Origin: Stegostoma tigrinum | Lineage: Eukaryota | Reading direction: 5' to 3' | Length of the DNA stretch: 64,000 nucleotides | NCBI RefSeq assembly: GCF_030684315.1 | Contig: NC_081373.1 | Span: 40,587,989 to 40,651,988 of the forward strand | Part shown: positions 1 through 64,000 of the stretch, piece by piece | Position numbering within the stretch: position 1 is the stretch's first letter | How the letters are laid out: each line of letters starts with the position of its first letter | The notes under the pieces: model-generated | Databases searched by the model: none | The model's input: the letters and a program-made list of their open reading frames with translations, nothing else | Told to the model about the DNA's origin: nothing | Program-made: the position numbers and the translations under genes

Positions 1-100
1 TGGTTTTGGGATGCAGTGGGTGGGGGGGAAGAGCTGGGCTGGTTGTGTGGTGCAGTGGGGGGAGGGGATGAACTGGGCTGGTTTAGGGATGCAGTAGGGG
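1..100 (-). repeat. 39-bp tandem repeat (about 2.5 copies visible) at the C-terminus of the PLE ORF
   Basis: The unit tggtt..ggatgcagtgggggga(g)gggatga(a/g)ctgggc recurs at about 1, 40 and 79. On the minus strand it encodes NQPSSSPPPTA-type repeats. Confidence 0.8.
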
Positions 101-1910
101 AAGGGGAGATTTTGAAACTGGTGAAGTCCACATTGATACCATATGGCTGCAGGGTTCCCAGGCGGAATATGAGTTGCTGTTCCTGCAACCTTCGGGTGGC
201 ATCATTGTGGCAGTGCAGGAGGCCCATGATGGACATGTCATCAAGAGAATGGGTGGGGGAGTGGAAATGGTTTGCGACTGGGAGGTGCAGTTGTTTGTTG
301 CGAACTGAGCGGAGGTGTTCTGCAAAGCGGTCCCCAAGCCTCCGCTTGGTTTCCCCAATGTAGAGGAAGCCGCACCGGGTACAGTGGATGCAGTATACCA
401 CATTGGCAGATGTGCAGGTGAACCTCTGCTTAATGTGGAATGTCATCTTGGGGCCTGGGATGGGGGTGAGGGAGGAGGTGTGGGGACAAGTGTAGCATTT
501 CCTGCGGTTGCAGGGGAAGGTGCCGGGTGTGGTGGGGTTGGAGGGCAGTGTGGAGCGAACAAGGGAGTCACGGAGAGAGTGGTCTCTCCGGAAAGCAGAC
601 AGGGGAGGGGATGGAAAAATGTCTTGGGTGGTGGGGTCGGATTGTAAATGGCGGAAGTGTCGGAGGATAATGCGTTGTATCCGGAGGTTGGTAGGGTGGT
701 GTGTGAGAACGAGGGGGGTCCTCTTGGGGCGGTTGTGGCGGGGGCGGGGTGTGAGGGATGTGTCGCGGGAAATGCGGGAGACGCGGTCAAGGGCGTTCTC
801 GATCACCGTGGGGGGAAAGTTGCGGTCCCTCAAGAACTTGGACATCTGGGATGTGCGGGAGTGGAATGTCTTATCGTGGGAGCAGATGCGGCGGAGGCGG
901 AGGAATTGGGAATAGGGGATGGAATTTTTGCAGGAGGGTGGGTGGGAGGAGGTGTATTCTAGGTAGCTGTGGGAGTCGGTGGGCTTGAAATGGACATCAG
1001 TTACAAGCTGGTTGCCTGAGATGGAGACTGAGAGGTCCAGGAAGGTGAGGGATGTGCTGGAGATGGCCCAGGTGAACTGAAGGTTGGGGTGGAAGGTGTT
1101 GGTGAAGTGGATGAACTGTTCGAGCTCCTCTGGGGAGCAAGAGGCGGCGCCGATACAGTCATCAATGTACCGGAGGAAGAGGTGGGGTTTGGGGCCTGTG
1201 TAGGTGCGGAAGAGGGACTGTTCCACGTAACCTACAAAGAGGCAGGCATAGCTGGGGCCCATGCGGGTGCCCATGGCCACCCTCTTAGTCTGTAGGAAGT
1301 GGGAGGAGTCAAAAGAGAAGTTGTTGAGTGTGAGGACGAGTTCAGCTAGGCGGATGAGAGTGTCGGTGGAGGGGGCCTGGTCGGGCCTGCTGGACAGGAA
1401 GAAGCGGAGGGCCTTGAGGCCATCTCCATGCGGAATGCAGGTGTACAGGGACTGGACGTCCATGGTGAATATGAGGTGTTGGGGGCCAGGGAATTGGAAG
1501 TCCTGGAGGAGGTGGAGGGCGTGGGTGGTGTCACGGACATAGGTGGGGAGTTCCTGGACCAAAGGGGAGAAAATGGAGTCCAGATAGGTGGAGATGAGTT
1601 CGGTGGGGCAGGAGCAGGCTGAGACGATGGGTCGACCAGGGCAGGCAGGTTTGTGGATTTTGGGAAGGAGATAGAAACGGGCCGTGCGGGGTTGGGGAAC
1701 AATGAGGTTGGAGGCTGTGGGTGGGAGGTCCCCTGAGGTGATGAGGTCATGAATGGTGTTGGAGATGATGGTTTGGTGCTCGGGTGTGGGGTCATGATCG
1801 AGGAGGCGGTAGGAGGTGGTGTCGGAGAGTTGGCGTCTGGCCTCGGCGATGTAGAGGTCAGTGCGCCATACTACCACTGCGCCACCCTTGTCTGCGGGTT
1901 TGATGGTGAT
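1..1910 (-). mobile_element. Penelope-like element, family A (Neptune-like): 5'-truncated RT + GIY-YIG endonuclease ORF, frame apparently open to the window edge
   Basis: The minus frame from 1910 reads ITIKPADKGGAVVVW...RFYLLPKIHK...GRPIVS...AMGTRMGPSYA...FLRYIDDC (YIDD codons start at 1169)...CNRRKCYTC...VVYCIHCTRCGFLYIGETKRRLGDRFAEH. The three motifs I checked (1910, 1169, 359) share one frame. The listed ORFs here are shadow frames. Confidence 0.95.
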
Positions 1911-2964
1911 TTGTTTTTAAAAGAAATGGACTCTTGCCAAATTGAAAAAGTCCGCAACTGAAAACAGAATAGTCCAGTTGGCTATTTTTAGAAATTATCA
2001 GCAATTAACAGATTAGAAACAAAGAAACAAAGTCAATGTCTCTAAGGTGTCACATGTCCCACTTGAAGTTCTAGTCAGGCCAAACACAAAGGAACTTCAG
2101 ATGATGGCTGGAATCCTACATGGGCCTGAACAATGTAGGCTTTGGTGAGAAATAAGGCAGAATCAAGCCAGAAGTCTGGTCAGGACTCTCTCAACGTCAG
2201 CAGCAACTTTTATGCAAGTTCTACATGTTGAGGCAAGGGTTCTCATTTGGGAGTAGTGAGTAGCCTAAAAAGGGGTACAGATTGTTGATGACCTAATTAA
2301 TTGTGCAGCTCACCTCTTCAGCACACGGTTTCCTATCCTACCACCTCTGGGAGGATCCTAGATGCCAAGAATTCTCGACATGGAAGTCAGAGCAGGAACC
2401 TGTCAGCTTCAACAGCAAACAAACTCCATGCTACTCAGCATGAAATATCACATCATGCTATAAGCACCAACTGCACACACCTCTCATTGATAAACATTGG
2501 ACATGTCATTTTCTACCCCTCAAAATCCTCATAGCACCTATCAATCCACCTGCAGGATACTCACAAAGACTTGAATTGCAGGTGGGACGTACTGACCACC
2601 AGCATTGAGAAGGCTACTACAAAAACTCTTTGCACTGAGGGGAAAGCATCCAGCTTATGGGTTGGACCAGGTTTTGTCTCAGGGCTGCTCACTTGCTCTC
2701 TTAGCACTTCCTTAGCACATATTTACATGCTCACAGTATCCATGCCTTGCTATGCTTTGCCTGTTACAGCATTGAAGCTTTAGCCAGAGACTAAAGGCTA
2801 TGAAGTACTGTCATAGTGACGTGCCCTTTTGCACAGACGCACAGACAGGATGCTTGTTGTGTTTGTCAGCAGGAGTCTGTCTGGTATATGATGCACCAAG
2901 ACTTCAAACTAACACTGACAGTATGTGCCAGCTGCCTGCACAGCAAGCTCACTGCATGTTCATT

Positions 2965-8340: not shown

Positions 8341-8666
8341 TTATCCAAAAGAACATTTGACATCATCCTAATGGGTGATGCCTCGTTATCAAGCTTTCGA
8401 GATCCAAATGTAACGATAAATAGTTTTATTTTACACCAATAACTACATTGCAAAGTCATTTATCAGTAAAATTGCTCACCAAGAAAGGTATACAATTTAT
8501 GTTGTTGTAAATTAGAGAAGTGATACTGTCATTTAAAAATTGACCCGGACAGAATATTAACTTTATTTCTGAATTCCAAAATCAGTGCAGAAATTCAACT
8601 CACAGACCTGAGCCAAGACACCTTCTAGCTTTGTTGAACTGAGAAACTAAAGTAACCTAAAAGCTT

Positions 8667-8897
8667 CAGAGATAATAGGAACTGCAGATGTTGGTGAATC
8701 TGTGATAACAAGGTGTAGAGCTCGATGAACACAGCAGGCCAAGCAGCATCAAAGGAGCAGGAAGGCTGACGTTTCGGGCTTAGACCCTTCTTCAGAAAAA
8801 TAAATTTTCCTGAAGAAGAGTCTTGGCCTGAAACGTCAGCCTTCCTTCTCTTCTGATGCTACCTGGCCTGCTGCGTTCATCCAGCTCTACACCTTGC
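8667..8897. mobile_element. Palindromic PLE family A mini-insertion (two head-to-head pLTR ends)
   Basis: The two arms are reverse complements. 14-bp TSD TAACCTAAAAGCTT at 8653-8666 and 8898-8911. Confidence 0.9.
8765..8795 (-). ncRNA. Minimal type-I hammerhead ribozyme motif; mirror copy on + at 8810-8840
   Basis: CUGAAGA-aGGGUcuaaGCCC-GAAAC-GUC^AGC: intact core boxes, stem II and palindromic ACGU stem III. Stem I is very short. Confidence 0.65.
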
Positions 8898-8919
8898 TAA
8901 CCTAAAAGCTTGAATGTTT

Positions 8920-10309
8920 GTGATCGGAGATAATGGGAACTGCAGATGTGGGAGATTCCAAGATAACAAAGTGTGAGGCCGGATGAACACAGCAGACCAA
9001 ACAGCATCTCAGGAGCACAAAGGCTGACGTTTCAGGCCTAGACCCTTCATCAGAGAGGGGGATGGGGAGAGGGCTCTGAGATAAATAGGGAGACAGGGGG
9101 AGGCGGACCGAAGATGGAGAGAAAAGAAGATAGGTGGAGAGGAGAATATGGGTGGGGAGGTAGGAAGGGGATATGTCAGTCCAGAAGGACGGACAGGTCA
9201 AGGAGATGGGATGAGGTTAGTAACTTTCCCCCCACAGTGGTTGAGAACGTCCTTGACCGTGTCTCCCGCATTTCCTACAACACATCTCTCACACCCCGCC
9301 CCTGCCTCAACCGCCCTAAGAGGATCCCCCTCGTTCTCACATACCACCCCACCAATGTCCGGATACAACGCATCATCCTCCGACACTTCCGCCATCTACA
9401 ATCCGACCCCACCACCCAAGACATTTTTCCATCCCCACCCTTGTCTGCCTTCCGGACAGACCACTTTCTCCGTGACTCCCTTGTCCGCTCCACACTCCCC
9501 TCCAACCCTACCACGCCCAGCACCTTCCCCTGCAACCACAGGAAGTGCTATACTTGCGCCCACACCTCCTCCCTCACCCCGATCCCAGGCCCCAAGGTGA
9601 CTTTCCATATTAAGCAGATGTTCACCTGCACATCTGCCAATGTGGTATACTGTATCCACTGTACCCGGTGTGGCTTCCTCTACATTGGGGAAACCAAGCG
9701 GAGGCTTGGGGACCGCTTTGCAGAACACATCCACTCGGTTCGTAATAAACAACTGCACCTCCCAGTCGCGAACCATTTTAACTCCCCCTCCCATTCCTTA
9801 GATGACATGTCCATCATGGGCCTCCTGCAGTGCCACAATGATGCCACCCAAAGGTTGCAGGAACAGCAACTCATATTCCGCTTGGGAACTCTGCAGCCCA
9901 ATGGTATCAATGTGGACTTCACAAGCTTCAAAATCTCCCCTTCCCCCACTGCATCCCAAAACCAGCCCAACCTGTCTCTGCCTCCCTAACCTGTTCTTCC
10001 TCTCACCCATCCCTTCCTCCCACCTCAAGCCAACCTCCATTTCCTACCTACTAACCTCATCCCACCTCCTTGACCTGTCCGTCCTTCCTGGACTGACCTA
10101 TCCCCTCCCTACCTCCCCACCTACACTCTCCTCTCCACCTATCTTCTTTTCTCTCCATCTTCGGTCCGCCTCCCCCTCTCTCCCTATTTATTCCAGAACC
10201 CTCTCAGCATCCCCCTCTCTGATTAAGGGTCTAGGCCCAAAACATCAGCTTTTGTGCTCCTGAGATGCTGCTTGGCCTGCTGTGTTCATCCAGCTCCACA
10301 CTTTCTTAT
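8920..10309 (+). mobile_element. PLE family A: 3' part (GIY-YIG + pLTR, about 9220-10309) preceded by an inverted pLTR (8920-9220)
   Basis: ORF 9114-9989 contains CNHRKCYTC...VVYCIHC...YIGETKRRLGDRFAEH. 11-bp TSD CTTGAATGTTT at 8909-8919 and 10310-10320. Confidence 0.93.
9023..9055 (-). ncRNA. Minimal hammerhead ribozyme motif in a PLE pLTR
   Basis: cuCUGAUGA-aGGGUCuaGGCCU-GAAAC-GUC^AG. Confidence 0.65.
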
Positions 10310-11767
10310 CTTGAATGTTTTTTTATTTTGTTTGTTACTCAATTCTCTTTCTCATTTTCTATTCTAGCTAATTGATGATCAATGAACCCTTGATACAATA
10401 TCTGTCCCTACAGATAAAGTAGGAACTTATTCTTAACCTGGTCAACACATTTGTACAAATTTTAGCATTCTCTTGTCCATTTCTGTAATAAAATGTAATT
10501 TCAGAATCAAAGAATCGTAGAATGGTACACCTCTGCAAAAGATTCAATCAGGTTCATCAGGCATGTCCTGTCTTTTTCAAATCCATGCTGGCTGTCCATC
10601 CGTGTCAAGAAGTTCAGCCAGTCAATCTGTCATGTCACAATGGGGATTTCAAGCTGTCTGGCCTCTAAATTCTGGGTTTTTGTTTTCTTCAATTGCAGAG
10701 TAACATGCTCCATCTTTGAAAATCCAAAAGCAAGATTCTTAAATCAAGGCAAATTTGGTAACTAATGGCTTGGGTGACTTCTATGTTTTCCCCTGCTTCT
10801 TTTAAAACCCAGGCACAGCAAAGATACACTGATGTCAATGTTTATGTTAATGACAAATTTTATTAGCATCAAAGACTAAACTGGTCAAAATTGAAATTCA
10901 ATGATTCAGAACTCAAAAGTTGAGCTGGACAAGTTCAAAACATTTCTTCGTCACATAAAATCTCAGTGTAAGCCAAAAGTACAAAACACTTACCATTTAC
11001 TACCCTTGAACAGACTGAACCTACAATCTCTATCCCAGAGAGGAAAAAAAGTAAAGAGGCTCAAGTAGTTTCTGGTTTAACACTATAATGATTGAAGTTT
11101 GAAATCAAAGTTCACTTTATCCTAGCTCCTTAAAACTGAGAGATCCCACACCATAACACTCACTTATGTAGTAATTTGCAATTGCATTGTGTTCCTGCAA
11201 TTAATTAGCTGTTGTTGTACCAGTGTGTACAATCAGTGCTGCTAAAACTCACTTTAAATGATGAGTCTGATAGGTCAAACTATTGATCAAATTTCCTGAC
11301 TAAACACAAAATTTAAATAGAACTTACCAGCAAGCAGTAGGAGCTGTCTGGAGAAGTGTCTGTCTGGCACCATTCAACATCCATCCAACTTTGATTTGTA
11401 CAGCAATGTCTCTTTCAAGAACACACAATCAAGTATCACACAGTGCAGTTATTTGGAGTCCTGCCCAATTTTAGTGAAGCTATGATTGGAGCACAACATG
11501 GAAAGAATTGGCTCTATTATTCCAGTTCTTAAAATCGGAAAAAAAAATCTCATATTTACCATAGTGTTGACATTTGAAGCCTCAAAAAATTTCTTCAAAA
11601 CTGGGTTTGATTCATAATCTGAGTACAAAAGTATATTGTCCTGTGGCAACCATTGGTCACCATTATGATTTTTCATCAGCTGCCAAAGAAAAGTGTGGGT
11701 TTATCTTAACCCCCTGTACGCATTCACATCACAGCAGGTGTCACCTGTTTAATTCCTTGTACCCAGT

Positions 11768-22151: not shown

Positions 22152-22572
22152 TGTAATGATTGTAACGAGGTTAGCTGGGTAGACCTCATAGAATATGAGA
22201 TAACAAGGTGTGGAGCTGGATGAACACAAGCAGGCCAGGCAGTATCAGAGGAGCAAGAAAGCTGATGTTTCAAGTCAGGACCCTTCTTCTGAAGAAGGGT
22301 CCTGACCCGAAATGTCAGCTCTCTTGCTCCTCCAATCCTGCAATGTTCATCCAGCTCCACACCTTGTTATCTCATAAATGTCAGTTCCCTGATTGGACCA
22401 GATTAATAGACCCCATCAGGGAGTCCGGGCTGACAGATATAAACAGGAGAGTCAGAGGTTCTGTTCACTTGGATCTGGCTCGAAGGGAGCTGGATCGGTG
22501 TCAAGGATCCTCCATGTGTAAATAAAAGGTGATTTGGTAACTAGGGATATTGGCCTCTGTGGAGTTATTTCA
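22152..22572 (+). mobile_element. Solo LTR of the Gypsy family at 51827-56456
   Basis: TGTAATGATTG...GAGTTATTTCA termini; 5-bp TSD CTAGG at 22147-22151 and 22573-22577; internal TATAAA and AATAAA. Confidence 0.88.
22200..22370. mobile_element. Palindromic PLE mini-insertion inside the solo LTR
   Basis: Arms fuse at ccttcttctgaagaagg. Degenerate TSD ctcatagaatatgag / ctcataaatgtcag. Hammerhead motif on + at 22289-22319. Confidence 0.85.
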
Positions 22573-24878: not shown

Positions 24879-27249
24879 CTACTTTCAACTTCCGCCAACA
24901 CCACAGCTGGCCCTTTCAAAGTCGCAATGCCAACAGTATTTTCCGACTCTGATTCAATTACTCATTAATCCAAATGATGTACAACACTACCTTCAATTGA
25001 GTTAATGGAGGCTACCTTTCATTCTTTTAAAAAATAATCAGTTGAATTTATTTTGTCATCAGGCTAGAAGGCAAAATAAATGGCTCCAACTCACAGGACT
25101 TCACTGTGTGAAATCAACGCGATTTCTACCTAAAACAGATGAGAAATAAACTCACAGTCCACACATTTATTGATACTAAAAATGCATCTTTGTTAAATTA
25201 ATGCCTTAGCCCATTCAACAGGAGCCATGTGGATATCCTGATGACGCCATCTATGTTGCCAGTAATGTAGTGGACTCTATTTTGAGGCTCACTGTTAGTG
25301 ACTTGTGTTATGAAAAGCAAGATGATGATTAAAAGGAGTGGAAATTACTCACTTATAAAGTCAGAACTGCTGGACCCACAGAATTTTAAAGGGAATTGGG
25401 TTGAAATAAAACAAACAAAATTTGCAGGAAATATTCTCAAAGTAGCTTTTCTGGAAACAAGGGCAGCTGGATGGTAAAATAAAGGGAACGAGCCTGAGGT
25501 GAATATAATACTGGCAGCCAGAGGATTCTAAATTAGGAGTTAAAATATCAGCATGAAATATATTGAAGTCATTTGTCTTTACTTTGTGCCAAATTTATAT
25601 CCTCCTCTCTGATGCATTTTTTGCTGATGTTTGAGTCCAATGAATGGATTTGACATTACATCTAGTGAGTTTGCATTTGATGGGAGAGGCAAGACATTAA
25701 ACGGTTATTGATTAAAACAAAAGGTGTTAACATTCCAGGACATTTTGTACATGGTACCAAGTATCCCATTCTTTTTGACAGAGGGTCTGGAAACCCATGA
25801 ATTTGGAAAAGGAAATCTAGTTCCAACAGGCAGTGGTAAAGCATGGGTCACGATAGAGTTACATCAAGCATTCTGTCTATTCCTCTGGCACTTTCCATTC
25901 AGATGGAAAGGGCCACTTCTGCCTTCTCACATCAAATGGTGATGTTTCCATGCTACCCCGGGGTTTCCACCCTTTATACTCTCCACACTTTTGTGTGGAA
26001 TATATGATACAAAACTTTATAAAGAAAAGATAATCAATTCTGAAAAGAGAGTCCATTGACTTCCAGGAAAACCTACTTCCTCTTCCAGGAGCAGGGGAGG
26101 TGATATACTAAATGTTCTCCCAGAGTTCACCCAACATCCTCTCTGCCAAACTGACTTTCCGGTTCACAGTTGAGAGAGATACAACTGAATTATCCTGCTG
26201 GCCTGTCACATAGATCCTGGCAGAGCAGAAACATATTTGTATGCCACGCAGGTTTCCATAAACCTGTGAAGAAAATGAATTAACCATGGAAACGACCTAT
26301 TTGTGTCTGACCTGTGTATGCTGTATCCTTAATAAGATTGCCAGAAAAAGGAATGGGAGAAATTGGCATCAATATACAACCTAATGCAAATATGAATGCA
26401 GTGGCTCGTCGCTGCTGATTAGAAGCAAAGACTAGCTCCCCCTGACTACCACACACAAATTCCCAGCTGCCACTCACTCGAATCCTACCAACAACATTCT
26501 TTGGGTTTCAATTTATTCTGCTGACTCATGAGTTTTACCAGTATTTAATTAAAGCAATAAGTGGAAGTAAATTAGGAAAAGCATCATGTTGTAACAATTT
26601 TTTTATACCTAGCTGTTCAAATAGATTATGCCACCCTCCAGAAGCAGGTCAGTCTTGAACCTGGATCTTCTTACCCAGAGAAAGGGTCTTTGCCACAAGA
26701 TCTCTCAGTGATCAACTCATTGAGCAATATGCCTCATTAGTCTTGCCAAGTGTGCAGTATGAACAAAATTGAGAAGGAAATGAAGAAAGGTAACCTAGGT
26801 ATGTGGTCAATCCAAAAGAAAAGGAAATTTAAGAAAGCAGAAAGATCCCAGGTTCAGTTATAACCTCAATGTCAGTGAGTTTGTTTTGCTGCAATTGGAA
26901 AGCTAGAGACAATTGTCCTTCACAGCTTTCAGAAGTTAAGTTATTGTTGCTTATATAGTCTCAAATTTAAAAATATTCCACCAGTTAAAAGGTAGTGTGA
27001 TTTTCCCCTGCACTGAAAGATATACCTTGATATATTCAAGAGCAATAACAGACCACAGTTTTATTAACTCTGCTAATAATGTGTTACATCCAGAAAAGAA
27101 GCAGTTAAATATCATTAACCTATCTGCTACTTGTGAATAACCTGATTATAAATAACTGAAAAGGACTTTTAAAAGTGACACTGGACAGTACTTTTATTGT
27201 GCAAAAGTCTTCTAAGTCTTTGTGTCTGAAACAAAGCTAAGACCCTCCT

Positions 27250-27934
27250 AGATAACAAAGTGTGGAGCTGGATGAACTCAGCACGCCAAGCAGCATCTTA
27301 AGAGCACAAAAGCTGACGTTTCGGGCCTAGACCCTTCGTCAGAAAAGAGGGATGGGGAGAGGATTCTGAAATAAATAGGGAGAGAGGGGGAGGCGGACTG
27401 AAGACAGATAGAGGAGAAGATAGGTGGAGAGGAGAGTATAGGTGGGGAGGTGGGGAGGGGGTATGTCAATCCGGGGAGGACAGACAGGTCAAGGGGGTGG
27501 GAGGAGGTTGGTAGGTAGGAAATGGAGGTGCGGCTTGAGGTGGGAGGAGGGGACAGGGGAGAGGAAGAACAGGTTGGGCAGGCGGGACAAGCTGGGCTGG
27601 TATTGGGATGCAGTGGGGAGACGGGAGATTTTCAAGCTGGTGAAATCCACATTGATATCATTGGGCTGCAGGGTTCCCAAGTGGAATATGAGTTGCTGTT
27701 CTTGCAACCTGAGGCTGGCATCATTATGACACTGCAGGAGGCCCAGAATGGACATGTCGTCCAATTAATGGGAGGGGGGAGTTGAAATGGTTCACGACTG
27801 GGAGGTTCAGTTGTTTAGGTCTAGGCCCGAAACCTCAGCTTTTGTGCTCCTAACATGCTGCTGGGCCTGCTGTGTTCATCTAGCTCCACACTACGTTATC
27901 TCGGATTCTCCAGCATCTGAAGTTCCCATTATCT
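27250..27934 (-). mobile_element. PLE family A 3' end (minus, to about 27812) plus an inverted pLTR arm (+, about 27817-27934)
   Basis: DDMSILGLLQCHNDASLRLQEQQLIFHLGTLQP on the minus strand. TSD CTAAGA(C/G)CCTCCT at 27237-27249 and 27935-27947. Confidence 0.9.
27312..27342 (-). ncRNA. Minimal hammerhead ribozyme motif, well preserved
   Basis: CUGACGA-aGGGUCuaGGCCC-GAAAC-GUC^AGC. Confidence 0.68.
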
Positions 27935-29084
27935 CTAAGAGCCTCCTGTCTTGGTTGCCCTTCATGAACACTATCAACAGAAGTTAATGTGGTCAGTATT
28001 CCACATGGGTGGTCAGTTTTGTGGGTGAAGCGAGTTGCCAGCATAGGATTTTTTAAACCAGTCTGAAAGATCGTGAAACTCGATTTACAATATATGCTTA
28101 AAATTCCTGTTTGATTTTTAAATGCTGGTAAACTAACCTCAGGTGAATAGCAGAAACCAGAAGCTAATATGTGTGTCTTTGTCCACATCTGTCCTTAAAG
28201 TAAACGTTTGAGAATTGCCATATATGTTGTTTTCATATTTTAACTCCTCATAATTTGTATTGAGCAAGTATGATGAGAAATTTTGGTCTCTATTTGATAA
28301 TGGGGAACATCTCTGTCTAGATGTCGGATCAGATTTCAAGGACAATATTGATCTGTCATTTTATTTGTTTTAAATCATGTACTTAAAAATACACCACTTC
28401 TATTTTTACTTCAGGAAGAAATCTGCAATAAATCATTGTTGATTTGCAACATCCAAGATCTCCAGTTTCAGGATAATTAACAAGTCTAGCTAGTTCATAG
28501 CTTCTGTTTTACCTCCTGAAATCTGGGACTACTCATCATGTCAGAAACAGCCATGTCCTCCAAGCATAAAGTTTCAGAATAATATTATTTATAACATAAT
28601 TCACACTAATTAAAAAGTTTGTATGATAGCAGATGGATCTGTTAAAGATAATGCACTAATGAAAGAGCTCCATCTGCTACAGTAGACACCTTTACACAAG
28701 AAGCAAATATGTAAGCAATGGTGCATTGACAGTTATCTTACATAATGTGAAAAGGTCATTTTTGCCTGTTCATGTGAAGCACATTTTTGTAGCAATGGGA
28801 GAATTTGTAATCCATCACTTTTACTTCCAAACAAATTTCTGATAACATGCCTCGTGAGAAGAAAAAAATACTAAAAATAGATACTGTGTTAACTTCAAAG
28901 AAAACAGAAGGCAGTGAAATGTGGGCGAGAAATGATACATTCAACAAATTAGAATCAAAATTAACAGGTATGGAAGAGAAGCAAAGAAGGAAGCTGAAAC
29001 AATGAGAAAATGGATCCAGCCTGTCAATCAAATAGCAAATGTACATGAATACTTGGGAAAGGAAATGTAAAATCTCGATAGTTG

Positions 29085-35689: not shown

Positions 35690-37445
35690 CCTATACCTGC
35701 GGTTTTAAAGGATGTGGCTCCAGAGATGGTGCGGACACTAGTTGAAATATTCAGGAACTGCATGGATTCTGGGAGGGTTTCAATGGTTTGGAAAGCTTAT
35801 ATTAAGACACCTTTGTTCAAGAAGAGTGGGAGACAAAAAGCAGATAATTATGGGTCAATTAGCATTTTCCCAATGATAGATATATGGTTAAAGTCCACTA
35901 TTCTAGAAGAAACAGGGAATTTAGAAAAATGTTTATGTAATCAAACAAATTCAACATGGTTTTGAGAAAGGGAAATGGTGGTTGACAAATCTGAGGATAA
36001 TATAAGTAGAACTGATAATGGGAACTGGTAGATATAGAGGATTCCAATTTCAAAAAGGCATTTAATAAGGTGCCCCATAAAAGATGATTGCACAAGATTG
36101 GAGCCCCCACTATTCGGGATACTGTATTAGCTTGTATTGAGGATGATTAACACAAATAACAGCAAGAGTTTTTATTAATATGTCCGTTTCAGTTTTAGAA
36201 AGGCATAATGAGCGTAGGGCACATGGATTAGTCCTAAGGCCTTAAATATTTACTATCTTTATTAGTATCTTCATGGAGGAGACAGACTGTGATATCTCCA
36301 AATCTGCTGATGATCCAAAATTATGTGGGAGGGCATGTTGTGATGAGGACATAAAGAATCTTTAACGGGATATATACAGGGTGAGTGAGTGGGCAAAAAC
36401 CTGGGAGATGAAGATTTTCATAAGAAAGTGAGTTCTTGCACTATGGTAGGGAGGCATAAGGCGCAACACTATTTAAATAGAGAGAAATATCAAGAAAATG
36501 CTGCACAGCGTGATTTGGAAGCTCTTGTGCATGAAACACAAATTATTAGCAAGCAGGTGCAGCAAATAATTAAGACAACAAATTGAATTTTGGATAACAA
36601 GGTGTAGAGCTGGATGAACACAGCACGCCAAGAAACATCAGATGAGTAGGAAAGCTGACGTTTCGGGTCTCGTCCTTTCTTCAGAAAAAAAAACAAATTA
36701 CCGCAAAAATCATTCTGAAGGGTCTAGACCCAAAACGTCAGCTTTCCTGCTCCTCCGATGCTGCTTGGCCTGCTGCGTTCATCCAGCTCTACACCTTGTT
36801 ATCTCAGATTCTTCAGCATCTGCAGTACCTACTATCTCTAAATTGAATTTTGGCCTCTGTTGATAGTGGCTGGAGTTTAACAGGGAAGTCTTATTATCAC
36901 TGTAATGGGTATTGGTGAGGCTGCATCTGGAGTACTTTGCAGAGTTTTGTTCCCTTTATTTAAGAATAGTGGTATTGGGAAGCAGTTCAATAGAGATTCA
37001 CTAGACTGATTTTGGAATGAAGCAGTTGACTTATCAAGAATGGATAAGCAGGTTTGTCTTTATTCATTAGAGTTTAGAAGAATAACGAATGATCTTATTG
37101 AAACATATGAGATTCTAAGGGGGCTTGACAAAGGCGGACATTGAGAAGATATTTCCACTAGTGGAGGGGGTCTTGAACTAGGATAGTTACAGATTAAATA
37201 GACTTCATTTAAAACAGATGTGAAGAATTTATTTTCCCAGAGGGCAGTAAATGTCCAGAATTTTCTACCCCAGATAGTTACAGAGGCTTTCTGCAAGTAG
37301 TGTGAAATATTAGGGAGTTGACATCCATGCTGAGTTGGCATTAAAGAGGATTTGAAGCTTGGGGCAGATCAACCATCATCTTTTTAAAGAGCAGGACAGG
37401 CTTGAGGGGTTGAATGGACTATTCCAGCTCCTATTTATGTTCTTA
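35690..37445 (+). mobile_element. Old CR1 RT fragment
   Basis: TPLFKKSGRQKADNY, FQKAFNKVPH and SKSADDPKL-like segments; decayed tail. Confidence 0.85.
36594..36839. mobile_element. Palindromic PLE mini-insertion
   Basis: 14-bp TSD AAATTGAATTTTGG at 36580-36593 and 36840-36853; A-rich filler at the centre. Confidence 0.92.
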
Positions 37446-38942: not shown

Positions 38943-39045
38943 AGATAACAAGGTGTAGAGCTTGATGAACACAGCAGGCCAAGCAGCATCAGAGGAGCAG
39001 GAAAGCTGAGGTTGCGGGCCTATACCCTTCTTCAGAAATGGGGGA
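38943..39045 (-). mobile_element. Single PLE family A pLTR arm
   Basis: agataacaaggtgtagagc...cccttcttcagaaatgggg, with a decayed hammerhead. Confidence 0.85.
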
Positions 39046-41149: not shown

Positions 41150-43550
41150 CTGCACACAAGATGTGGAAGCTTCTGAATGCCACTGTGATTCAGAGCAAAC
41201 ACGTCTGCAGTTGCAGGACCTTCAGCTCAGAGTCAATGGACCGGAGGCCAAGTTGCAGGTGCTGCAGAAGGGGGAAGGTTGCCTAGACACCTGGTTCCAG
41301 AAGACAATCATTCCCTTTAATCTACAGTCATCTGATTTGGCCAGTGCTCAGGAACGGGCGGGGAAGGCGGGGGAGATGTGTGATTACCGAGAGACTGCGT
41401 ACGAGATCCACATTGTTCAACTGGTTTGAAGTCCTTTCAGCTTGTAGTAAGTGCTGCTAACTGATCATGACACCATGCTTCAGGAAACCATTCAAGCTGA
41501 GGCGCTAACAGGAACAAAATGGTACTAGGGTGCAGAATAGCGAAGGGACTGACATTGTTCCCTGCAGCAAATAGCACTCATCCAAGCGGCTCTGTTGTTT
41601 GCCTAGTGCCAGTGTATGGGACGTCCGCTCTAAACTGGAGAAGAAATTGCAGAGGAAGTGGACAGATCCAGTGAACGTGTTGTAGGTAGGTACCAATGAT
41701 ATAGATAGAACTACGAAAGAGGTCCTGCTGACGCTTTATCAGAAATTAGGGTCTGAATTAGAAAGCAGAGCCTCTAAAGTAATCTCTGGAATTATGATTT
41801 TGAACCACATACAAATTAACATAGGGCAATTAACATTTGAGAAACTAATGCATGGCTCAAAGACTGGTCTGGTAGAAGTGGGATCCAGTTCATATGGGGT
41901 AATGAAATGTGAGGCTGGATGAACACAGCAGGCCCAGCAGCATCTCAGGAGCACAAAAGCTGACGTTTCGGGCCTAGACCGCCCGAAACATCAGCTTTTG
42001 TGCTCCTGAGATGCTGCTGGGCCTGCTGTGTTCATCCAGCCTCATTTCATCATCTTGGATTCTCCAGCATCTGCAGTTCCCATTATCACTGATCCAGTTC
42101 ATATGGCACTGGCACCAGCACTGGGGAAGGTGCGGTTTGTATTGTTGTGATGGTCTATACCTGGAGTGGCAAGCTGTATGACTGGAAAAATAGAAAGGCC
42201 TTTAAACTAATCAAGGGGCAAGGGATCCAGCTCAGATTGATGTTGCAAATAAAGGGGTAGAGTCAAGACAGGGGAGCAAAAGAACAATGTGGGAAATGAA
42301 GGTTAGAGAATTTCTGGACTGGACAGAACAGAAAACTCTAGGAATATACCCAACTGTCAATTCTAAGCATTGCAAAGATAACTAAGGCAAAACCAAACAA
42401 ACAATCTGTATCTGAATGCACAAAGAATGCATAATAAAAGTTTTTTTTTAAATTGATAGGCACACTTCAAAGGAAATAAATGTGATCTAATTGCCATTTT
42501 AATTGCATAGGGCTGCAGTTGATCAAGATTATGTCCTGAATATTAGCAAGTAAATGACATTCAACAACAGGAAGCATGGTCAAGATGGAGGGGTTAGCAC
42601 TCTTAAATCAACCATGACATTCATGCTGTAGTTAGAGATGACCTAGGTTCGGGAGATCAGATGTAGAATCGATTTGAGTGGATATTGGGAATTGTGGAAA
42701 GAAATCACTGGAGCAAAGTGATCTACACTATTCCTAACAATGACCACAATGTTGGGCGAAGTAAGCAAGAAGCAAAATTGTATGTGATGAAGGGATGACA
42801 ATCACCAGGTGACTTTAATTTGAGGAAAACATTGCATGAAGAAAAAGCATTTAATTGTGCAAAGGTGAATCAAAGATCGGATGATTATCCAGAATATAAA
42901 GAACAAGACGCTCGGTGAAAGGTTAATAATGCAAAAAACAGTGAGAGGAAGCTAGAACTTTAAAATTGGATAAAAAGTGCTTTTTTTTTTGCAGGTAGCC
43001 ATAATACAAAAGAATATAGAGTAACTGTTGGGTGTCTAGAGAGTCGGAATGGGGAGTTAGTAGTAAATAACAAAGAAATACTGTATGAATTGAACAAATA
43101 TTTTGCTTATGAATGAATATAATCTGTTTATTCAAGGGAGGGAGGCAGAAGACAGAACATTGTAGGGTATTTAACATGACATTTGTCATGGACCAGATTT
43201 TATAATTAAATATTTAAGGAGATTATAGTTGAGAAATTTGGAAAAATCCAAGGTAGTTGGGACTCGTTAACATGGTTTTGGCAAAGGAAAATCCTATTTA
43301 ACTGTCTGGAGATCTTTGAAGGAGTAAAATGGACTGTACTTGGATTTCCAAAAGGCATTTGACAGGGTGCAACAAAGATTATTGCATGAATTAAAAGCAC
43401 AGACAGTGCTCAAAGACAATAAATTGGTTGGTTAACAGAAAACAAATGTTCTGTTTTATAAATGGGTCACATTGGCAGTATGTGACAAATATTGTCCCAT
43501 GTAGGTCTACATTGGGGCCTCAAAATTTCACAATTTATATCAATGTAATT
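41150..43550 (+). mobile_element. Old CR1 with ORF1 (SGNH esterase-like) and deleted ORF2 pieces
   Basis: RLCCLPSASVWDV, VGTNDIDR and DGLYL are SGNH motifs, followed by YLNA (APE start) and RT remnants. Confidence 0.75.
41898..42090. mobile_element. Palindromic PLE mini-insertion, young
   Basis: Near-perfect arms fused inside hammerhead stem II. Perfect 16-bp TSD GATCCAGTTCATATGG at 41882-41897 and 42091-42106. Confidence 0.95.
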
Positions 43551-44330: not shown

Positions 44331-44942
44331 ATATTCTAGGAAACCAAATTGAAAACTCACCCAATTTGATGAATATGTAGTACATTAATATGCTCATTGC
44401 AGTTGGTATTTCGTATACAGGCATACTAACATTTCTAGTCAAATTGTTGTTGACCTTTAAAGGATAATATTTTGTTTTCCTACTGCCAAAATCATACTAT
44501 TCAAAATTTACAATGAAGCCTTTTGCCCAATGAGCAATATTTAAGTCTCAATTGTTTAATAACTTTCACTAATATTGTATTGTTGCACTAATATTTCTGT
44601 GAATCTGAAACAGACCTAAGATAATACTGGGAAGTACTCAGCAGGTCAAGCAGCATCTGAGGGCAACAAAACTGTTAATGCTTCAGGTGAATTGTCTTCT
44701 GTAAAAAATAGAAAATATACAATTCACTTTTAGTTCCTGAACCATCATGTGGTTATAAGAAAATGTGATCAAGCTAAAGTACTAATTGTTTCTCTCCATT
44801 AAATGCTCCCTGAGTTTCTGTGGCTTTTTATGCTCTTTATAATACTATTCCAGATCTTGGACTGTATTTTTCACTTAAATCTTGAAGATGAACACTTTTT
44901 TTCAATCCTAATGCGAAATTGGAGCAACGTGGATTTGAAGTA

Positions 44943-45077
44943 AAAAGCAAAAGAATTGCGGATGCTGGAAATCTGAAATAAAAACAAAAATTGCAGAAAA
45001 GCTCAGCAGGTCTAGCAGCATCTGTGGACAGAAATCAGAATTAAACTTTCGAGTTCAATGACCCTTCCTCAGAACTG
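44943..45077 (-). mobile_element. PLE family B pLTR with a hammerhead motif (45036-45077); an older inverted pair lies at about 44600-44855
   Basis: cagttCTGAGGAagggtcattgaactcGAAAgtttaattctg on the minus strand. Confidence 0.75.
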
Positions 45078-47338: not shown

Positions 47339-48442
47339 AGATAATAGGAACTGTCAATGCTGGAGTCAGAGATAACAGTGCTGAGCTGGATGAACACAGC
47401 AGGCCAGGTAGCATCAGGGGAGCAGGAAAGCTGATGTTTCATTCTGAAGGGTCCCGACCCAAAACGTCAGCTTTCCTCACCACCCCACCAACCTCCAGAT
47501 CCAACACATCATCTTCCAACACTGCTACCATCTGCAATCAGACCCCACCACCAAAGACATTTTTCCCACCCCACCCTTATCTGCTTTCCAGAGGGACCAC
47601 TCTCTTTGTGACTCCATTGTCCGCTCCACACTCCCTCCAGCCCCATCAAACCTGGCACTTTTCCCTGCAACCAAAGGAAATGCTACATCTGCCCTGACAC
47701 CCCTCTCACCCCCATCCCAGGCCCCAAGAAGACGTTCCACATCAAGCAGATGTTCACCTGCACATGTGCTAATGTGATATACTGCATCTGCTGTTTCTGT
47801 TGTGGCCTCCTCGACATCAGGGAAACCAAGCGGAGACTTGGAGACCGCTCTGCAGAATACCTACAGTCGGTTCACACTGAACAATTGTACCTCCCAGTCG
47901 CGAACCACTTCAAATCCCCCTCCCATTCCTCAGACGACGTGTCCATCCTGGGCTTCCTGCAGTGCCACAATGATACCACCCGAAGGTTGCAGGAACAGCA
48001 ACTCATATTCCGCCTGGGAACCCTACTGCCCAATGGTATCAGTGTGAACTTCATAAGCTTCAATCTTCCCCCCACCCACCCCCCCACATCCCAAAACCAG
48101 CCCTGCCTGTCCCCGTCTCCTTAACCTGTCCTTCTTCCCACACCTAGCCTCATCCTGCCCCCATGACCTGTCCGTCCTCCCTACCTACACTTACCTTTAC
48201 CGGCTCCATCCCTGCCTCTTTGACCTGTCTGTCTCCTCTCCACCTATCTTCTCTTCTATCCACCTCCGCCCCCTCTCCCTATTTATTTCAGAACCCCCTT
48301 CCCCTCCCCAACTTCTGAAGAAGGGTCTAGGCCTGAAATGTCAGCCTTCCCGCTCCTCTGATGCTGCTTGGCCTGCTGTGTTCCTCCAGCTCTACACCGT
48401 GTTATCTCAGGTTCTCCAGCATTGGCAGTTCCTACTATCTCT
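47339..48442 (+). mobile_element. PLE family A 3' end (GIY-YIG + pLTR) with an inverted pLTR at its 5' side
   Basis: VIYCICCFCCGLLDIRETKRRLGDRSAEY; hammerhead motif at 48315-48345; no TSD seen. Confidence 0.9.
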
Positions 48443-48770
48443 GCTGTCATGATGTCTGTTCGTGTCTCTGTGGTTATAGTTTGGTCCAAGTATTAGGACA
48501 GCCTTCTCTGTTTTAAGTGGTCTACTGTATAGGCTTCTTATCCCAGATTCTGGTTTGTTGTTGTCCTCGTCTTTAGGCTCTCCTGTAGCATGTGTTTCTT
48601 CTTCGTTCTTGTCCTGCGTTGTTTGATAGTGATGGTCAGTTCCAGGATTGTGGTCCATTACTGGTCGGTAGTGTTTTGGTACAATGATTTTTAGCATGAA
48701 AATTCTCATTCATACCTTTAGCGCCAGTTGTGGGGGTTGTTGATCATTACCCATAGCATTCTCTAGCCTT

Positions 48771-49072
48771 ATTGTTCAAACGAGAGACGAGGAAGACAGC
48801 AATCCACTTGTATTTCTAGACCACAGGGCAGAAGGTATGACCAATAGGGAGTTCCAAACCACAGAATATAGGAAGGCAATCCACACCTGACCAAATCCTC
48901 AATTTCCACAGCAATCACCCCAATGCCCACAAACAAAGCTGTGTCAGGGCACTCTTCAAATTGGGCCACAACTCAGTGCAACATGCCAGGAAGGAGGGAG
49001 GGCACCTATACAAGGTCTTTGCTAACAATGGATATCCCAACAACTTCATCCTCAAGTGCTTATTAGATAGCG
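48771..49072 (+). mobile_element. Inverted internal fragment of PLE family C abutting its 5' end
   Basis: DQILNFHSNHPNAHKQSCVRALF...YKVFANNGYPNNFI on +, homologous to about 46300-46580 on minus. Confidence 0.8.
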
Positions 49073-57803: not shown

Positions 57804-60800
57804 AGGCAAAGGCCTAGTGATATGTGCTAGTGGTATTATTGCTAGACTATTAATCCAGAAACCCAATTAATTTTCTGGGGACTGGTGTTCAAATCCTACC
57901 AGGGCTGAGTGGAATTCGAATTCAATTAAAAAAAGTCTGGAATTAAGACTCTACTGATGACCATGAAACCACTGTCCATTTTCGGGGAAAAACTCGAGGC
58001 CCACTAATGTCCTTCAGGGAAGGAAATCTGCCATCCTCACCTGGTGAGGCCTACATGTGACTCCAGACCCACAGCAATGTGCTTGACCCTCAATTACCCT
58101 GTGAAATGGCCTAGCAAGCCACTGAGTTGTAACAAACACTACAAATTCTCAAAGAAATGAAGCTGGACAGATCACCTGGCATCAAGTGAGGCAGTGGAAA
58201 AGACAACAGCAGAAACAGCCCGGTTGACTGTGCAAAGTCCTCCTCATTAACGTCCGGGGGCTAGTGCCAAAATTGGGAGAGCAGTCTCACAGACTCTTCA
58301 AGCAACTGCCTGACATGGTCATAGTCACAGAATCATACCTTTAAAATTTCCCAGACACCACCATCACCATCCCTGGATATGTCCTGTGCAGCCAGCAGGG
58401 TTGGCGCACAGTGGTATACAGTTGGGATGGTATTGCCCTGGGATTCCTCAACATTGACTCCAAACCCCATGAAGTCTCCTGGCTTCAGGTTAAACATGGG
58501 CAAGGAAACATGTTGCTGAATGTCAGATACCTTCCTTCCTCAGCTGATGAATCCATACTCCTCCACTTTGAATAACACTTAGAGGAAGCACTGACGATGG
58601 CAAGGGCACAAAATGTACTCTGGGTGGGGGATTTCGAAGCCCACCACCAAGAGTGGCTGGGCAGTAGTACTGCTGATCAGGTCCTAAAGGACATAGCTGC
58701 TACACCGGGTCTGCAGCAGGTGGTGAGGGAACCAACAAGACAGAAGAACGCCTTATTCTTGACCTTTATTCTTACTAATCTGTCAGCTGCAGATCCATCT
58801 ATCCATGACAGTATCAGTAAGAGTGACCATTGCACAGTCCTTGTGGAGACAAAGTCCGACCTTCACATCGAGAACACGCTCCATCGTGTTGTATGGCACT
58901 ATCACTGTGCTAAATGGGACAGACTTCACACAGATCTAGCAACTGAAGACTGGGGCATTCATGACGTGCTGTGGGCCATCAACAGCAGCAGATTGATACT
59001 CCAGCATATCACTCACTCAACCATTATTATTAAGCCAGGGGATCAAACCCAGACAGTTCAATTAAGATCGTTAATGAGGAGGGGATGCCAGCATCAGCAT
59101 GACACATATCTGAAATTGATGTCTCAAGCTGGTGAGGCGACTAAAGAGGACTACTTCCATGTCAAACAGCAAATGCAGCAAGTGATAGACAAATCAAAGC
59201 AATCCTACCACCGATGGATCAGATCCAAACTCTGCAGAGATAATGGGAACTGCAGATGCTGGAGAATCCAACATAAAGTGTGGGGCTAGATGAACACAGC
59301 AGGCCAAGCAGCATCTTAGAAGCACAAAAGCTGCCTCTGCCTTCATCAGAAAAGGATCTGATGAAGGGTCTAGGTCCAAAACGTCAGCTTTTGTGCTCCT
59401 AAGATGCTGCTTGGCCTGCTGTGTTCATCCAGCCCCACACTTTATTATCCCAAACTGCAGTCCTGCCACATCCAGTCGTGAATGGTGGTGGACAATTAAA
59501 TAATTTACTGGGGGAGGAGGCTCCATAAATATCCCCATCCTGAATGATGGAAGAGCCCAGTATATCAGTGCAAAAGATAAGGCTAAAGCATTCGCAGCAA
59601 TCTTCAGCCAGAAGTGCCAATTCAATGAACCATCTCGGCCTCCTCCAATGGTCCCCAGCGTTATAGATACTAGTCTTCAGCCAATTCAATTCATTCCATG
59701 TGTCATCAAGGAAGAGTTAGAGACACTGGATACTGCAAAGGCTACAGGCATTGACAAAATTCTGGCAATGGTACTGAAGACTTGTGCTTCAGAACTTGCT
59801 GCTTCCCTAGCCATACTATTCTAGTACAGTTACAACAGTGATATCGACTCAACAGATGTGGAAAATTGCCTAAGTATGTTCTCTACACAAAAAAACAGGA
59901 TAAATCCAACCTGGCCAATTACCACCCCATTAGTCTAGTATCAATCATCAGTAAAGTGATGGAAGGTGTCAACAACAGTGTTGTCGAGTAGCCCCTACTC
60001 AGCAATAACCTGCGCAGCGATGCCTAGTTTGTGTTCCATCAGGGCCACACAGCTCCTGACCTCATGACAGTGTTGCTTCAAACATGGACAAAAGAGCTGA
60101 ATTCCAAAGTGAGGTGAGAGTGACAGTCCTTAACATCAAGGTTTATTCGACCAAGTGTGGCATCAAGGAACCCTAGCGTAACTGGAATCGATGAGTATCA
60201 GGGGGCAAACTCTCCACCAGTTGGAACCATACCTGACACATAGAAAGACGGTCGTGGTTGTTGGAGGTCAGTCATCTCCGCTTCAGTACAGCTCTGCAGG
60301 AGTTCCTCAGGGTAGTGTCCTCAGCCCAACCATCTTCAGCTGCTCCATCAATGACCTTCCCTCCATCACAAGGTCAGAGGTGGGCATGTTTGCTGATGAG
60401 CGTACAATGTTCAGCACCATTCATGTCTCCTCAGATACTGAAGCAGTCCATGTTCAAATGCAACAAGTTTAGGAAAATGTCCAGGTTTGGGCTGACAAGT
60501 GGCAAGTGACATTTGCACCACAAAAATGCCAGGCTATGACCATCATCAATAAGAGACTACCTATCGCCCCTTGACATTCAATGGTGTTACTGTCACTGAA
60601 TCCCTCACCATTGATATCTTGGGGATTATCATTGACCAGAAACTCAGTTGGATTCACCACATAAACACAATGGCTACAAGAGCAGCCAGAAGCTAGGAAT
60701 ACTGGGGGAAGTGAATCACCTCCTGTCTCAAAGCCTGTCCACCATCTACAGGGCACAAGTCAGGAGTGTGATGGTATACTCCCCACTTGCCTGGCTGAGT

Positions 60801-62420: not shown

Positions 62421-62432
62421 GGCGGAGATGAG

Positions 62433-62931
62433 AGCGAGATAACACGGTGCGAAACTGGATGAACACAGCGGGCCAACCAGCATCAGAGGAGCAGGAAAGC
62501 TTGACATTTCAGGTCGGGTCCCGCTTCATCCAGCTTCACACCGTGTTATCTCAGATTCTCCAGCATCGGCAGTTCCTACTATCTCTGTGACAACTTTAAC
62601 CCCGCTGCGAAACCTCTTCAAGGATGCCTTCCTTAAAGAAGCTATCCCCCTCCCTCCGAAAAAACCTCAGTTCATCCCTCTCCCACTGCAACCCTCTTGT
62701 ACTTTCTTTGGCCTTGAAACTGCTTGACCACGTCCTAAAGCAAATCGGATACTACAGCCACATTTCTCAGTACCTGCCTACGGAACCGGATAATCCCCTC
62801 AAAGGAAGAAGGGTCCAGACCCGAAACATCAAGCTATCCTACTCCTCTGATGCTGCTTGGCCTGCTGTGTTCATCCAGCTTCACACCGTGTTATCTCAGA
62901 TTCTCCAGCATCGGCGGTTCCTAGTGTCTCA
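62433..62931 (+). mobile_element. Miniature PLE: inverted arm, pLTR end, ORF N-terminus, second pLTR
   Basis: 8-bp TSD GAGATGAG at 62425-62432 and 62932-62939; direct repeat at about 62525-62586 and 62871-62930; ORF start MPSLKKLSPSLRKNLSS at 62624. Confidence 0.8.
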
Positions 62932-64000
62932 GAGATGAGCGTTTGTTTTTGTTTTTCTCTTAGAGTCACTAGTCTGTTGAATTCTCCTCCCCAAAGACAG
63001 TGGAGGCTGAGTCATTGAACACATTCAATGCAGAGTTTGAAGAGTTCTCAATTGATAGGGGCAGGCTGGAAAGTAAGAGTTTTATTCACAATCAGTCTAG
63101 CCATGATTGTATAGTATAGCCGAGTTGGCTCAGGAGGGTCAATGCCCTACTCCAGATATTAATTCTTATGTTCTTAAGTGTTTCTTTTCAGCAGCTTAAA
63201 GCTTCCCCATGGTGGCTCCCTCAGTTGGGCACTGAATGCCTGATATTGAGAGAATTCCCCACATTGAGGCCACGGGAAAACTCAACAGGGTTTGCTGCAC
63301 AGCTTTCAGGAGGCACAGCAGACTCATTTGAAACCCAAAAATACATCCCAAGCCTTCATTGAATGCCAGTGAGTTCAGGGATAATTGGCTTTAAGTGGTC
63401 ATTAAAGAACGATTAACTGACAGTCTTCCATCAATATGTGGGATTCCCACATCGGGTCTTGGCTGACATTCAGTACAGCTTTCCTGCTGCCCAGGATCAC
63501 ATGCAGATATTCCCACCAGATTTTCCTAGCACCCACCATCGTCCCTGTTCCTGTGTGCTCTCTAAATTGCCCCCAGGTCTTTGAAGAGCAAAGTTGTCTG
63601 TCATGCAGAAATAAAGATAGTCCTGGAAATCTGTGCTATAAGTTGTCCCTAATGGTCTTAACTCTCTGAAATATTGGCAAACGCAATAATGATCCTGGTA
63701 GTTCTACAGGCCTTTCAGAAACTGCCATGCCTACCTCTGTTTGTTGTTCCTGCCAGACATCATTAGCTCGAAATAACCAGCTTACTTTGACGTCCACTAT
63801 TCATGTTGAACTGCTTAAAATTGCAGAAAAACTGTGTAAATCCAACATTCTGAAATCAGCATCAATAGCCTTTTTATAATCAGGAAGAGGAAAATATGTC
63901 TATAAATTCTTAAAGAACGTTGACATTCAATTTAGCAAAATTTTCAAACAGTTTCAGCTGAAAAAATTGCAGGAACAGAGTGTTATCTCTGTAAAATCCA

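Follow-up and report, generated by a model that had tools for sequence, protein, structure and literature searches.

A short insertion in Stegostoma tigrinum DNA consists of two inverted arms (69/70 aligned nt identical) flanked by a duplicated target, and one arm carries about 35 nt at its outer end that its partner lacks. This locus (I7 in Table 1) raises the questions of what kind of element makes such insertions, why the copies end where they do, and whether the two ends of one insertion are coupled. Self-comparison of the window, i.e., the whole 64-kb stretch of DNA that was analysed, detected the short inverted-repeat family at ten places. PMC8557442, PMC3846280, PMC2377424, PMC6155905 and bioRxiv 10.64898/2026.07.22.740005 are cited below for the available parts of their texts.

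The inserted element has a linker of the Neptune/Nematis type

Frames linked to the inverted repeats encode a reverse transcriptase (RT) followed by a GIY-YIG endonuclease. The frame at 3-1916 (-) holds both in a single ORF, with the RT first and GIY-YIG at the C-terminus, which is the order of endonuclease-bearing (EN+) Penelope-like elements (PLEs). Pfam analysis of this frame gave RVT_1 (E = 8.5e-5) and GIY-YIG (E = 0.002), neither match reaching the Pfam cut-off; its homologues carry PF00078 and PF26215, and some carry PF01541. The translation has DKG at residue 9, YIDD, and VYCIHCTRCGFLYIG at residue 507 with His residues downstream. DKG together with a CCHH zinc finger, two cysteines of which (CxxC) lie inside GIY-YIG, is likewise characteristic of EN+ PLEs. 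CNRRKCYTC at residue 469 (CX4CxxC) fits the CX2-5CxxC linker between RT and endonuclease, and the linker motif is present in 47/61 homologues of at least 800 aa. In the available clade definitions of EN+ PLEs, which also include the DKG motif, this linker is found in Neptune and Nematis and is absent from Penelope/Poseidon (PMC8557442). By its protein motifs, then, the element is classified as an EN+ PLE with a linker of the Neptune/Nematis type and falls outside Penelope/Poseidon, since a linker zinc finger is present. Its three top-ranking homologues come from sharks, namely whale shark (88% identity), zebra shark (94%) and bamboo shark (78%). A PDB sequence search gave no matches. The copy that holds the frame is probably young; it is 5'-truncated near 1913, with the N-terminal third missing and the inverted partner arm absent.

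Insertions in the window

A profile built from eight arms detected 20 strong segments (19 outer arms and a read-through piece) and a short internal piece at 47445-47477. Two weak arms of an older family, 44615-44687 and 44953-45070 (-), were left out of the counts; they belong to a different pseudo-LTR (pLTR) family and have a similar hammerhead-like box. As in other EN+ PLEs, nine insertions are two-armed and inverted, seven of them with an accepted target site duplication (TSD), and I10 contains a partial tandem. A tail of 33-36 nt was found on a single end in 7/9 two-armed insertions. The tenth, I6, is a lone short arm missing from the earlier list of insertions. Neither a partner arm nor a TSD was found for it, and an 11-nt copy of its flank at 40068 was rejected as a TSD, having no element arm beside it.

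Both arms of each insertion belong to the same subfamily, and private variants are common to the arms in I7, I9 and I10. An assembly artefact was rejected on the grounds that the arms differ by 2-14%, TSDs are present, and an empty paralogue exists for I9. I2 sits directly at the right TSD of I1 (8898-8925), where the two duplications overlap by 3 nt. The arms of I3 meet exactly at 22290, the midpoint of a CTTC-T-GAAG palindrome that belongs to the element itself; the outer 33 nt of these arms (22194-22226 / 22344-22376) are perfectly complementary and extend 6 nt past the usual short end, the inner parts being 84% complementary, and conversion between the arms may have changed one end. Element coding sequence was also captured: the short arm of I4 includes the end of the nuclease coding, the segment 47478-48443 (+) of I8 is part of the nuclease coding up to the long end, and the piece 62525-62804 of I10, the sole read-through piece in the window, comprises the tail, a 38-nt spacer and the probable first 60 codons of the ORF. 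The latter piece was caught between the two arms by template jumps.

No TSD was found for I8. This insertion lies within a decayed second PLE-like RT element (46200-47338 and 48444-49070), which has its own inverted segment (46297-46580 / 48784-49070) and which we take to be Poseidon-type by its motifs. I8 probably came with a deletion of target, presumably of about 200 nt or more, an unproven figure based on a motif. To measure this deletion, homologues of the flanking RT were sought, and none of 78 candidates was significant; with a profile built from 61 long homologues, the left flank could be positioned immediately after DKG, but the right flank could not be placed. Elsewhere, 31060-31413 (-) is a decayed PLE nuclease-coding fragment (tblastn matches) without a recognisable arm. 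An inverted repeat of about 128 nt (52422-52548 / 53359-53486, 93% identical), unrelated to the PLE arms, flanks a decayed frame at 52815-53237 that, we assume, resembles the integrase region of an LTR retrotransposon.

Table 1. Positions of the element features and insertions in the window (ref, position on the read-through copy)
Feature	Position	Strand	Description
RT-linker-GIY-YIG frame	3..1916	-	stop-free, 638 codons, 5'-truncated copy; 3' end beyond window edge
I1	8653..8911		TSD 14 nt (8653-8666 / 8898-8911); arms: long 8667-8797 (-), short 8810-8897 (+)
I2 TSD	8909-8919 / 10310-10320 (locus 8909..10320)		11 nt exact; about 16 nt allowing 2 mismatches
I2 arms			long 8925-9222 (-); short 9223-10309 (+) with linker, GIY-YIG coding and 3'UTR
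I3	22185..22379		short/short; TSD doubtful, about 9-10 nt by eye, missed by automatic search
I4	27237..27947		TSD 13 nt, 1 mismatch; short arm 27250-27817 (-), long arm 27818-27936 (+)
I5	36580..36853		TSD 14 nt; A-rich spacer between short arm 36594-36686 (-) and long arm 36713-36839 (+)
I6	38943..39045	-	lone short arm
I7 left TSD	41882..41897	+	16 nt, exact repeat of 42091-42106
I7 inverted pLTR arm	41898..41980	-	short end ref +25, inner end ref -58
I7 direct pLTR arm	41981..42090	+	long end ref +61/62, inner end about ref -51
I7 PLE tail	42055..42090	+	about 35-nt stretch between end sites, single arm only
I7 right TSD	42091..42106	+	
I8	47339..48443		long/long; left arm 47339-47441 (-), hammerhead piece 47445-47477 (+), 47478-48443 (+)
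Minimal type I hammerhead-like motif	48315..48346	+	CUGAxGA box, 4-bp stem II, GAAAC-GUC; recurs in arms
I9	59225..59460		TSD 13 nt, 2-nt deletion in right copy; long arm 59238-59340 (-), short arm 59357-59449 (+)
I10 TSD	locus 62425..62941		8 nt exact; 10-12 nt with 2-nt gap
I10 parts			arms: short 62437-62524 (-), long 62805-62931 (+); between them read-through piece 62525-62804 (+)
First TATCT motif (short end site)	62547..62551	+	read-through copy, ref +22
Second TATCT motif (long end site)	62580..62584	+	ref +55, 33 nt downstream of first
Probable element ORF start	62624..62804	+	38 nt past long end; from translation

Outer ends fall in two clusters

Ends were measured on the only copy that reads through both of them (ref +1 = 62526). 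The 19 outer arm ends comprise 10 short ends, with a minimal position of +21 to +29, and 9 long ends at +59 to +62, and none falls at +35 to +58. Under a uniform spread the probability of this bimodality is about 1e-7, a value that refers to a gap picked after the data were seen. The preliminary description of this DNA had placed the ends at two fixed TATCT positions, and this holds, with individual ends scattered over several nt. The spacing given there, 35-40 nt, is corrected to 33 nt between the motifs and about 35-36 nt between the end clusters. Its typing of the ends was right: seven of the nine two-armed insertions are short/long, I3 (22195) is short/short and I8 (47339) is long/long.

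The element was also said to continue beyond both ends, as it indeed does (62586-62804), reaching an ATG at 62624. The frame opened by this ATG gave weak matches to a profile of homologue N-termini (positions 4-58, iE 0.005 and 0.026). Because the element runs past both ends to the probable ATG, both ends represent internal RNA positions upstream of the probable ORF start. RNA folding at the end sites was no better than that of shuffled sequences in 7/7 folds (z from -0.63 to +1.54), and a possible 7-bp pairing of the tail with an upstream GAUGCUG showed no covariation.

Target site duplications and pairing of end types

The automatic search found TSDs of 14 nt in I1, 11 nt in I2, 13 nt in I4, 14 nt in I5 and 16 nt in I7, with p ≤ 0.004 against 1000 random pairs; for I7, 0/1000 random window pairs scored as high. 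The 8-nt TSD of I10 was weaker in this search (p = 0.049). That of I9 was assigned manually and has the support of an empty paralogue of its target repeat near 5600, and that of I3 was chosen by eye. TSD length ranges from 8 to 16 nt. There was no clear bias for AT-rich targets (GC content 0.39 in the TSDs vs. 0.43 in the window).

One short and one long end were said to be the usual arrangement of an insertion. This stands for the insertions with an accepted TSD, where 7/7 are mixed (p = 0.037 with fixed margins, 0.008 binomial), whereas 7/9 among all two-armed insertions is within chance (p = 0.20 with fixed margins, 0.09 binomial). Short/long coupling within an insertion is likely but not proven, since the TSD-flanked subset leaves out exactly the two exceptions (I3 and I8); in addition, the TSDs of I9 and I10 are weak or hand-set. 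Among the seven mixed TSD-flanked insertions the tail is on the left in three and on the right in four.

Sequence matches at the junctions

The TSD edge was described earlier as often continuing the element sequence for 3-6 nt. We scored the exact overlap over 14 TSD-defined junctions, with a null that allows chance matches on either side of the junction, and obtained 15 nt vs. 9.9 nt expected (p = 0.11). Exact continuation of at least 3 nt was found at 2/14 junctions (4 nt at 10310 and 3 nt at 59237); both ends of I3 (22195) also continue for at least 3 nt, with a TSD picked by eye. Exact microhomology was therefore rejected as a rule; the short-end test gives p = 0.002 once I3, with its by-eye choice of TSD, is included. 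The continuation "ctgatc" quoted as an example is absent from the sole read-through copy, which reads CTGTGAC. This copy and the arm ending at 42090 belong to different subfamilies, so that the 42090 junction can be scored only to 1 nt. More generally, the reference beyond +62 comes from one subfamily only, and the long-end overlap of the second subfamily was scored against the continuation of the other. A search for the sequence after the long end in the second subfamily, with frame 62521-62724 against protein representatives, gave one match, to an unrelated tandem-repeat protein.

Loose matching gave a different picture at the two kinds of ends. Over the first 9 nt, short ends matched at 29/63 positions vs. 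18 expected (p about 0.003), and long ends matched at 20/63 (p = 0.35); control flanks taken from the other nick at the same positions matched at 19/63. The p value for short ends was 0.001-0.027 when one end was left out at a time, below 0.04 for windows of 6-14 nt, and 0.10 for 4 nt. With free choice of offset, the short-end excess over the other-nick flanks nearly vanished (34 vs. 31 matches). For n = 7 and several tests run, these results are suggestive of loose pairing at short ends only. The proposal that priming is aided by microhomology is unsupported in the form of exact 3-6 nt pairing, and the Poseidon element PAc starts at a non-homologous site (PMC11167929).

Inner ends and a hammerhead-like motif

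The inner (element-5') ends also cluster. Counting the 19 outer arms and two internal pieces, 10/21 segments end at ref -65 to -69, just 5' of the hammerhead-like CUGAxGA box, a count of positions read from the alignments. The cluster takes in both arms of each of I1, I3, I5 and I9, together with I8's internal piece and I10's right arm, at 8797-8810, 22290, 36686-36713, 47445, 59340-59357 and 62805 of the window. Other inner ends lie at about -1, -48, -51, -58, -58, -60 to -66, -77, -236, -542, -904 and -1063. A-rich filler is present at the inner junction in I1, I5 and I9. The right cDNA of I10 reaches -65 and then resumes from ref +279, i.e., a template jump. Such clustering may reflect either a fixed RNA 5' end at which synthesis runs off or a site of strong pausing. 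Transcription of Drosophila Penelope starts inside the pLTR (PMC2377424).

The predicted cut of the hammerhead-like motif lies between ref -40 and -39, with the core boxes and stem II seen by eye on the alignment. Pairing is kept in 91% of cells, with no compensatory change and no excess over shuffles. Rfam gave no match at the gathering score and no hammerhead match; the 25 sub-threshold matches in 8600-10400 were mostly miRNA-precursor models on inverted repeats. Minimal hammerhead forms are expected in PLEs (PMC6155905), and PLE hammerheads are also treated in bioRxiv 10.64898/2026.07.22.740005. None of the 21 segments ends at the predicted cut, which is consistent with uncut RNA being the template, as in vitro (PMC11167929).

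A model for insertion and its alternatives

We consider it probable that reverse transcription starts at two internal sites, usually one for each of two staggered nicks, and that head-to-head joining of the two cDNAs follows. The RT-nuclease protein would probably act as a dimer and bind the element RNA within the pLTR, between the putative hammerhead and the ORF start that follows it, and would nick both target strands about 8-16 nt apart, giving the TSD. Each nick would prime internal reverse transcription at, or directly behind, one of the two UAUCU motifs, which are spaced by 33 nt; as a rule the far site would serve one nick and the near site the other, so that a tail would be left on one arm only. 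The cDNAs would grow inwards, many of them stopping where the putative hammerhead has its 5' edge, about 65-69 nt upstream of the anchor. Their head-to-head joining would make use of the CUUC-U-GAAG palindrome, of short overlaps or of A-rich filler. Some cDNAs may jump template and bring in pieces of the ORF. The element identity, the two end clusters, the TSDs and the inward stop cluster are all shown by the shark window. Internal RT starts and both-strand nicking are assumed by analogy with the literature on the Poseidon clade, and we infer the coupling of the two sites in one event, the dimer and the nature of the inward stop.

The two defined start sites proposed in the preliminary description gain support from PAc, for which they were demonstrated in vitro (PMC11167929), and by analogy may apply to the shark element. 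Its further proposal of one start site per target strand is plausible: it fits 7/7 TSD-flanked insertions, but the sample is small, 7/9 is not significant, and PAc shows no strand difference. Several observations count against the model: with PAc in vitro, neither a difference in start site between the strands nor a single event that used both sites was observed (PMC11167929), the pairing over all nine two-armed insertions is within chance, and no folding or covariation signal was found at the sites.

A single RT start at the far site would yield exactly one long and one short end if the cDNA folded back at the palindrome or was copied, the short end being produced either by a nuclease or when the second target overhang anneals close to the first TATCT. 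In its favour are the loose complementarity at short ends only and the joining of I3 exactly at the palindrome centre; the tail was attributed by Craig et al. to nuclease-mediated resolution (PMC8557442) and the junction palindromes by Arkhipova et al. to self-priming (PMC3846280). The arms of I2 and I4 speak against it. The short arm reaches ref -1063 in I2 and -542 in I4, whereas the long arm stops at -236 and -58, so the short arms hold about 830 and 480 nt absent from the long arms, and the tail is on the long arm only. Each arm thus has sequence that its partner lacks, which points to separate templated synthesis of both, neither being copied from the other, and argues against a simple fold-back, which PMC3846280 prefers as the origin of junction palindromes. 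The short/short I3 and the lone short I6 also exist, and both sites were seen as RT starts in vitro (PMC11167929). We regard a single start as unlikely.

About equally unlikely, in our judgement, is that two start sites are chosen independently for each nick, e.g., where a symmetric dimer carries two RNAs, in which case the surplus of mixed insertions would be noise from a small sample. The overall count (7/9), the one short/short and one long/long insertion and the lack of a strand difference in vitro all agree with independent choice; the 7/7 mixed TSD-flanked insertions do not, both exceptions being without a clear TSD, and in the literature the tail is often at one end only (PMC8557442, PMC3846280). 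It is very improbable that the palindromes of 200-250 nt are copies of one or a few non-autonomous masters which already had one long and one short arm, so that their ends would have been passed on by the master instead of arising at each insertion. I1, I3, I5 and I9 are indeed similar in size with inner ends near ref -67, but all inner junctions differ in sequence, two subfamilies share the pattern, ORF-bearing insertions have the same ends, and the TSDs vary in length.

Two internal starts with head-to-head joining can be developed into a more specific cycle, which we put forward tentatively and hold to be rather less likely true than false. In it an asymmetric RT-nuclease dimer would assign the two target nicks to different start sites, priming unpaired at the far site and by loose pairing of 8-10 nt at the near site, and the cDNAs would run off a fixed RNA 5' end just before the hammerhead-like core, in the manner of retroviral strong-stop DNA, before head-to-head joining or a template jump. 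Such a cycle, if true, would explain the one-sided tail, the inverted pLTRs and the regeneration of the pLTR.

Relation to published work

The two-site ends and their cause are the already-published PLE tail and its two RT start sites (PMC8557442, PMC3846280, PMC11167929); the shark Neptune-type element confirms this known tail pattern and adds no new system. What may be new is quantitative, namely the end-type coupling, the loose pairing at the near site only and the fixed inward stop. No counts of coupling, site-specific priming complementarity or inward stop were found in the literature searched, a search that left most subscription papers, including the original tail descriptions, outside, and a literature search on Penelope/Neptune retrotransposons in sharks found nothing. 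The present evidence comes from one 64-kb window, and the published biochemistry from a Poseidon element of another clade. Since 64 kb already contain 10 insertions, a large natural sample is available in these sharks for counts of coupling, priming complementarity and the inward stop.

Comparison with known systems

In LINE-1 twin priming, cDNA synthesis is likewise primed from both target nicks, and the product is an inverted insertion flanked by a single TSD. There the poly(A) end serves the first primer, whereas the second pairs with internal sites that vary from case to case, so the arms do not overlap. The shark arms, in contrast, both span one and the same stretch of the element and begin at fixed positions.

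Closer likenesses are found among PLEs. The inverted 5'-truncated copy, partial tandems, tail and DKG are shared with EN+ PLEs (Penelope/Poseidon, Neptune, Nematis and Naiad), in which a tail of 30-40 nt is often at one insertion end only, and the CX2-5CxxC linker with Neptune and Nematis (PMC8557442). That work differs in crediting the tail to nuclease-mediated resolution, and the available part of it gives no pairing statistics. Drosophila virilis Penelope has an optional 34-37 nt repeat (34-bp repeat) at the pLTR 3' end, as in the shark, and differs in having a 5'UTR intron (PMC2377424). Adineta vaga Penelope carries a 31-nt tail on one of two inverted pLTRs within a 9-nt duplication; it resembles the shark element in its inverted pLTRs, optional one-sided tail and palindromes at the inverted junction and pLTR 5' ends, with TSDs of 8-10 nt. 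It belongs to another clade and host, its pLTRs are about 190-220 nt, and its junctions were explained by self-priming on an antisense template (PMC3846280).

The closest comparison is with PAc (Poseidon_Ac of Anolis carolinensis), which nicks both target strands, extends each of them and is predicted to form dimers (PMC11167929). Its RT starts at two internal sites that bound a 30-40 nt tail, genomic ends map there, starts occur without homology to the cut DNA, and ribozyme cleavage is dispensable (PMC11167929). PAc is of the Poseidon clade and is without the linker zinc finger that the shark element has; its sites lie inside the ORF, whereas the shark sites lie about 38 and 73 nt before the probable ATG, and its motif is AC-rich, the shark motif being UAUCU. 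Target homology is absent from PAc starts, whereas shark short ends show a loose match. The available main text and methods of PMC11167929 give no count of end-type pairing per insertion. In the PAc template (PMC11167929, Methods; counted by eye), ACAACA occurs twice, once at the start given there (+111-118) and once 36 nt farther upstream. This repetition resembles the two TATCT motifs of the shark, and the upstream copy would be the second PAc site. As in PAc (PMC11167929), the two end sites of the shark element bound a tail of 30-40 nt, and its putative hammerhead lies upstream, apparently uncut.
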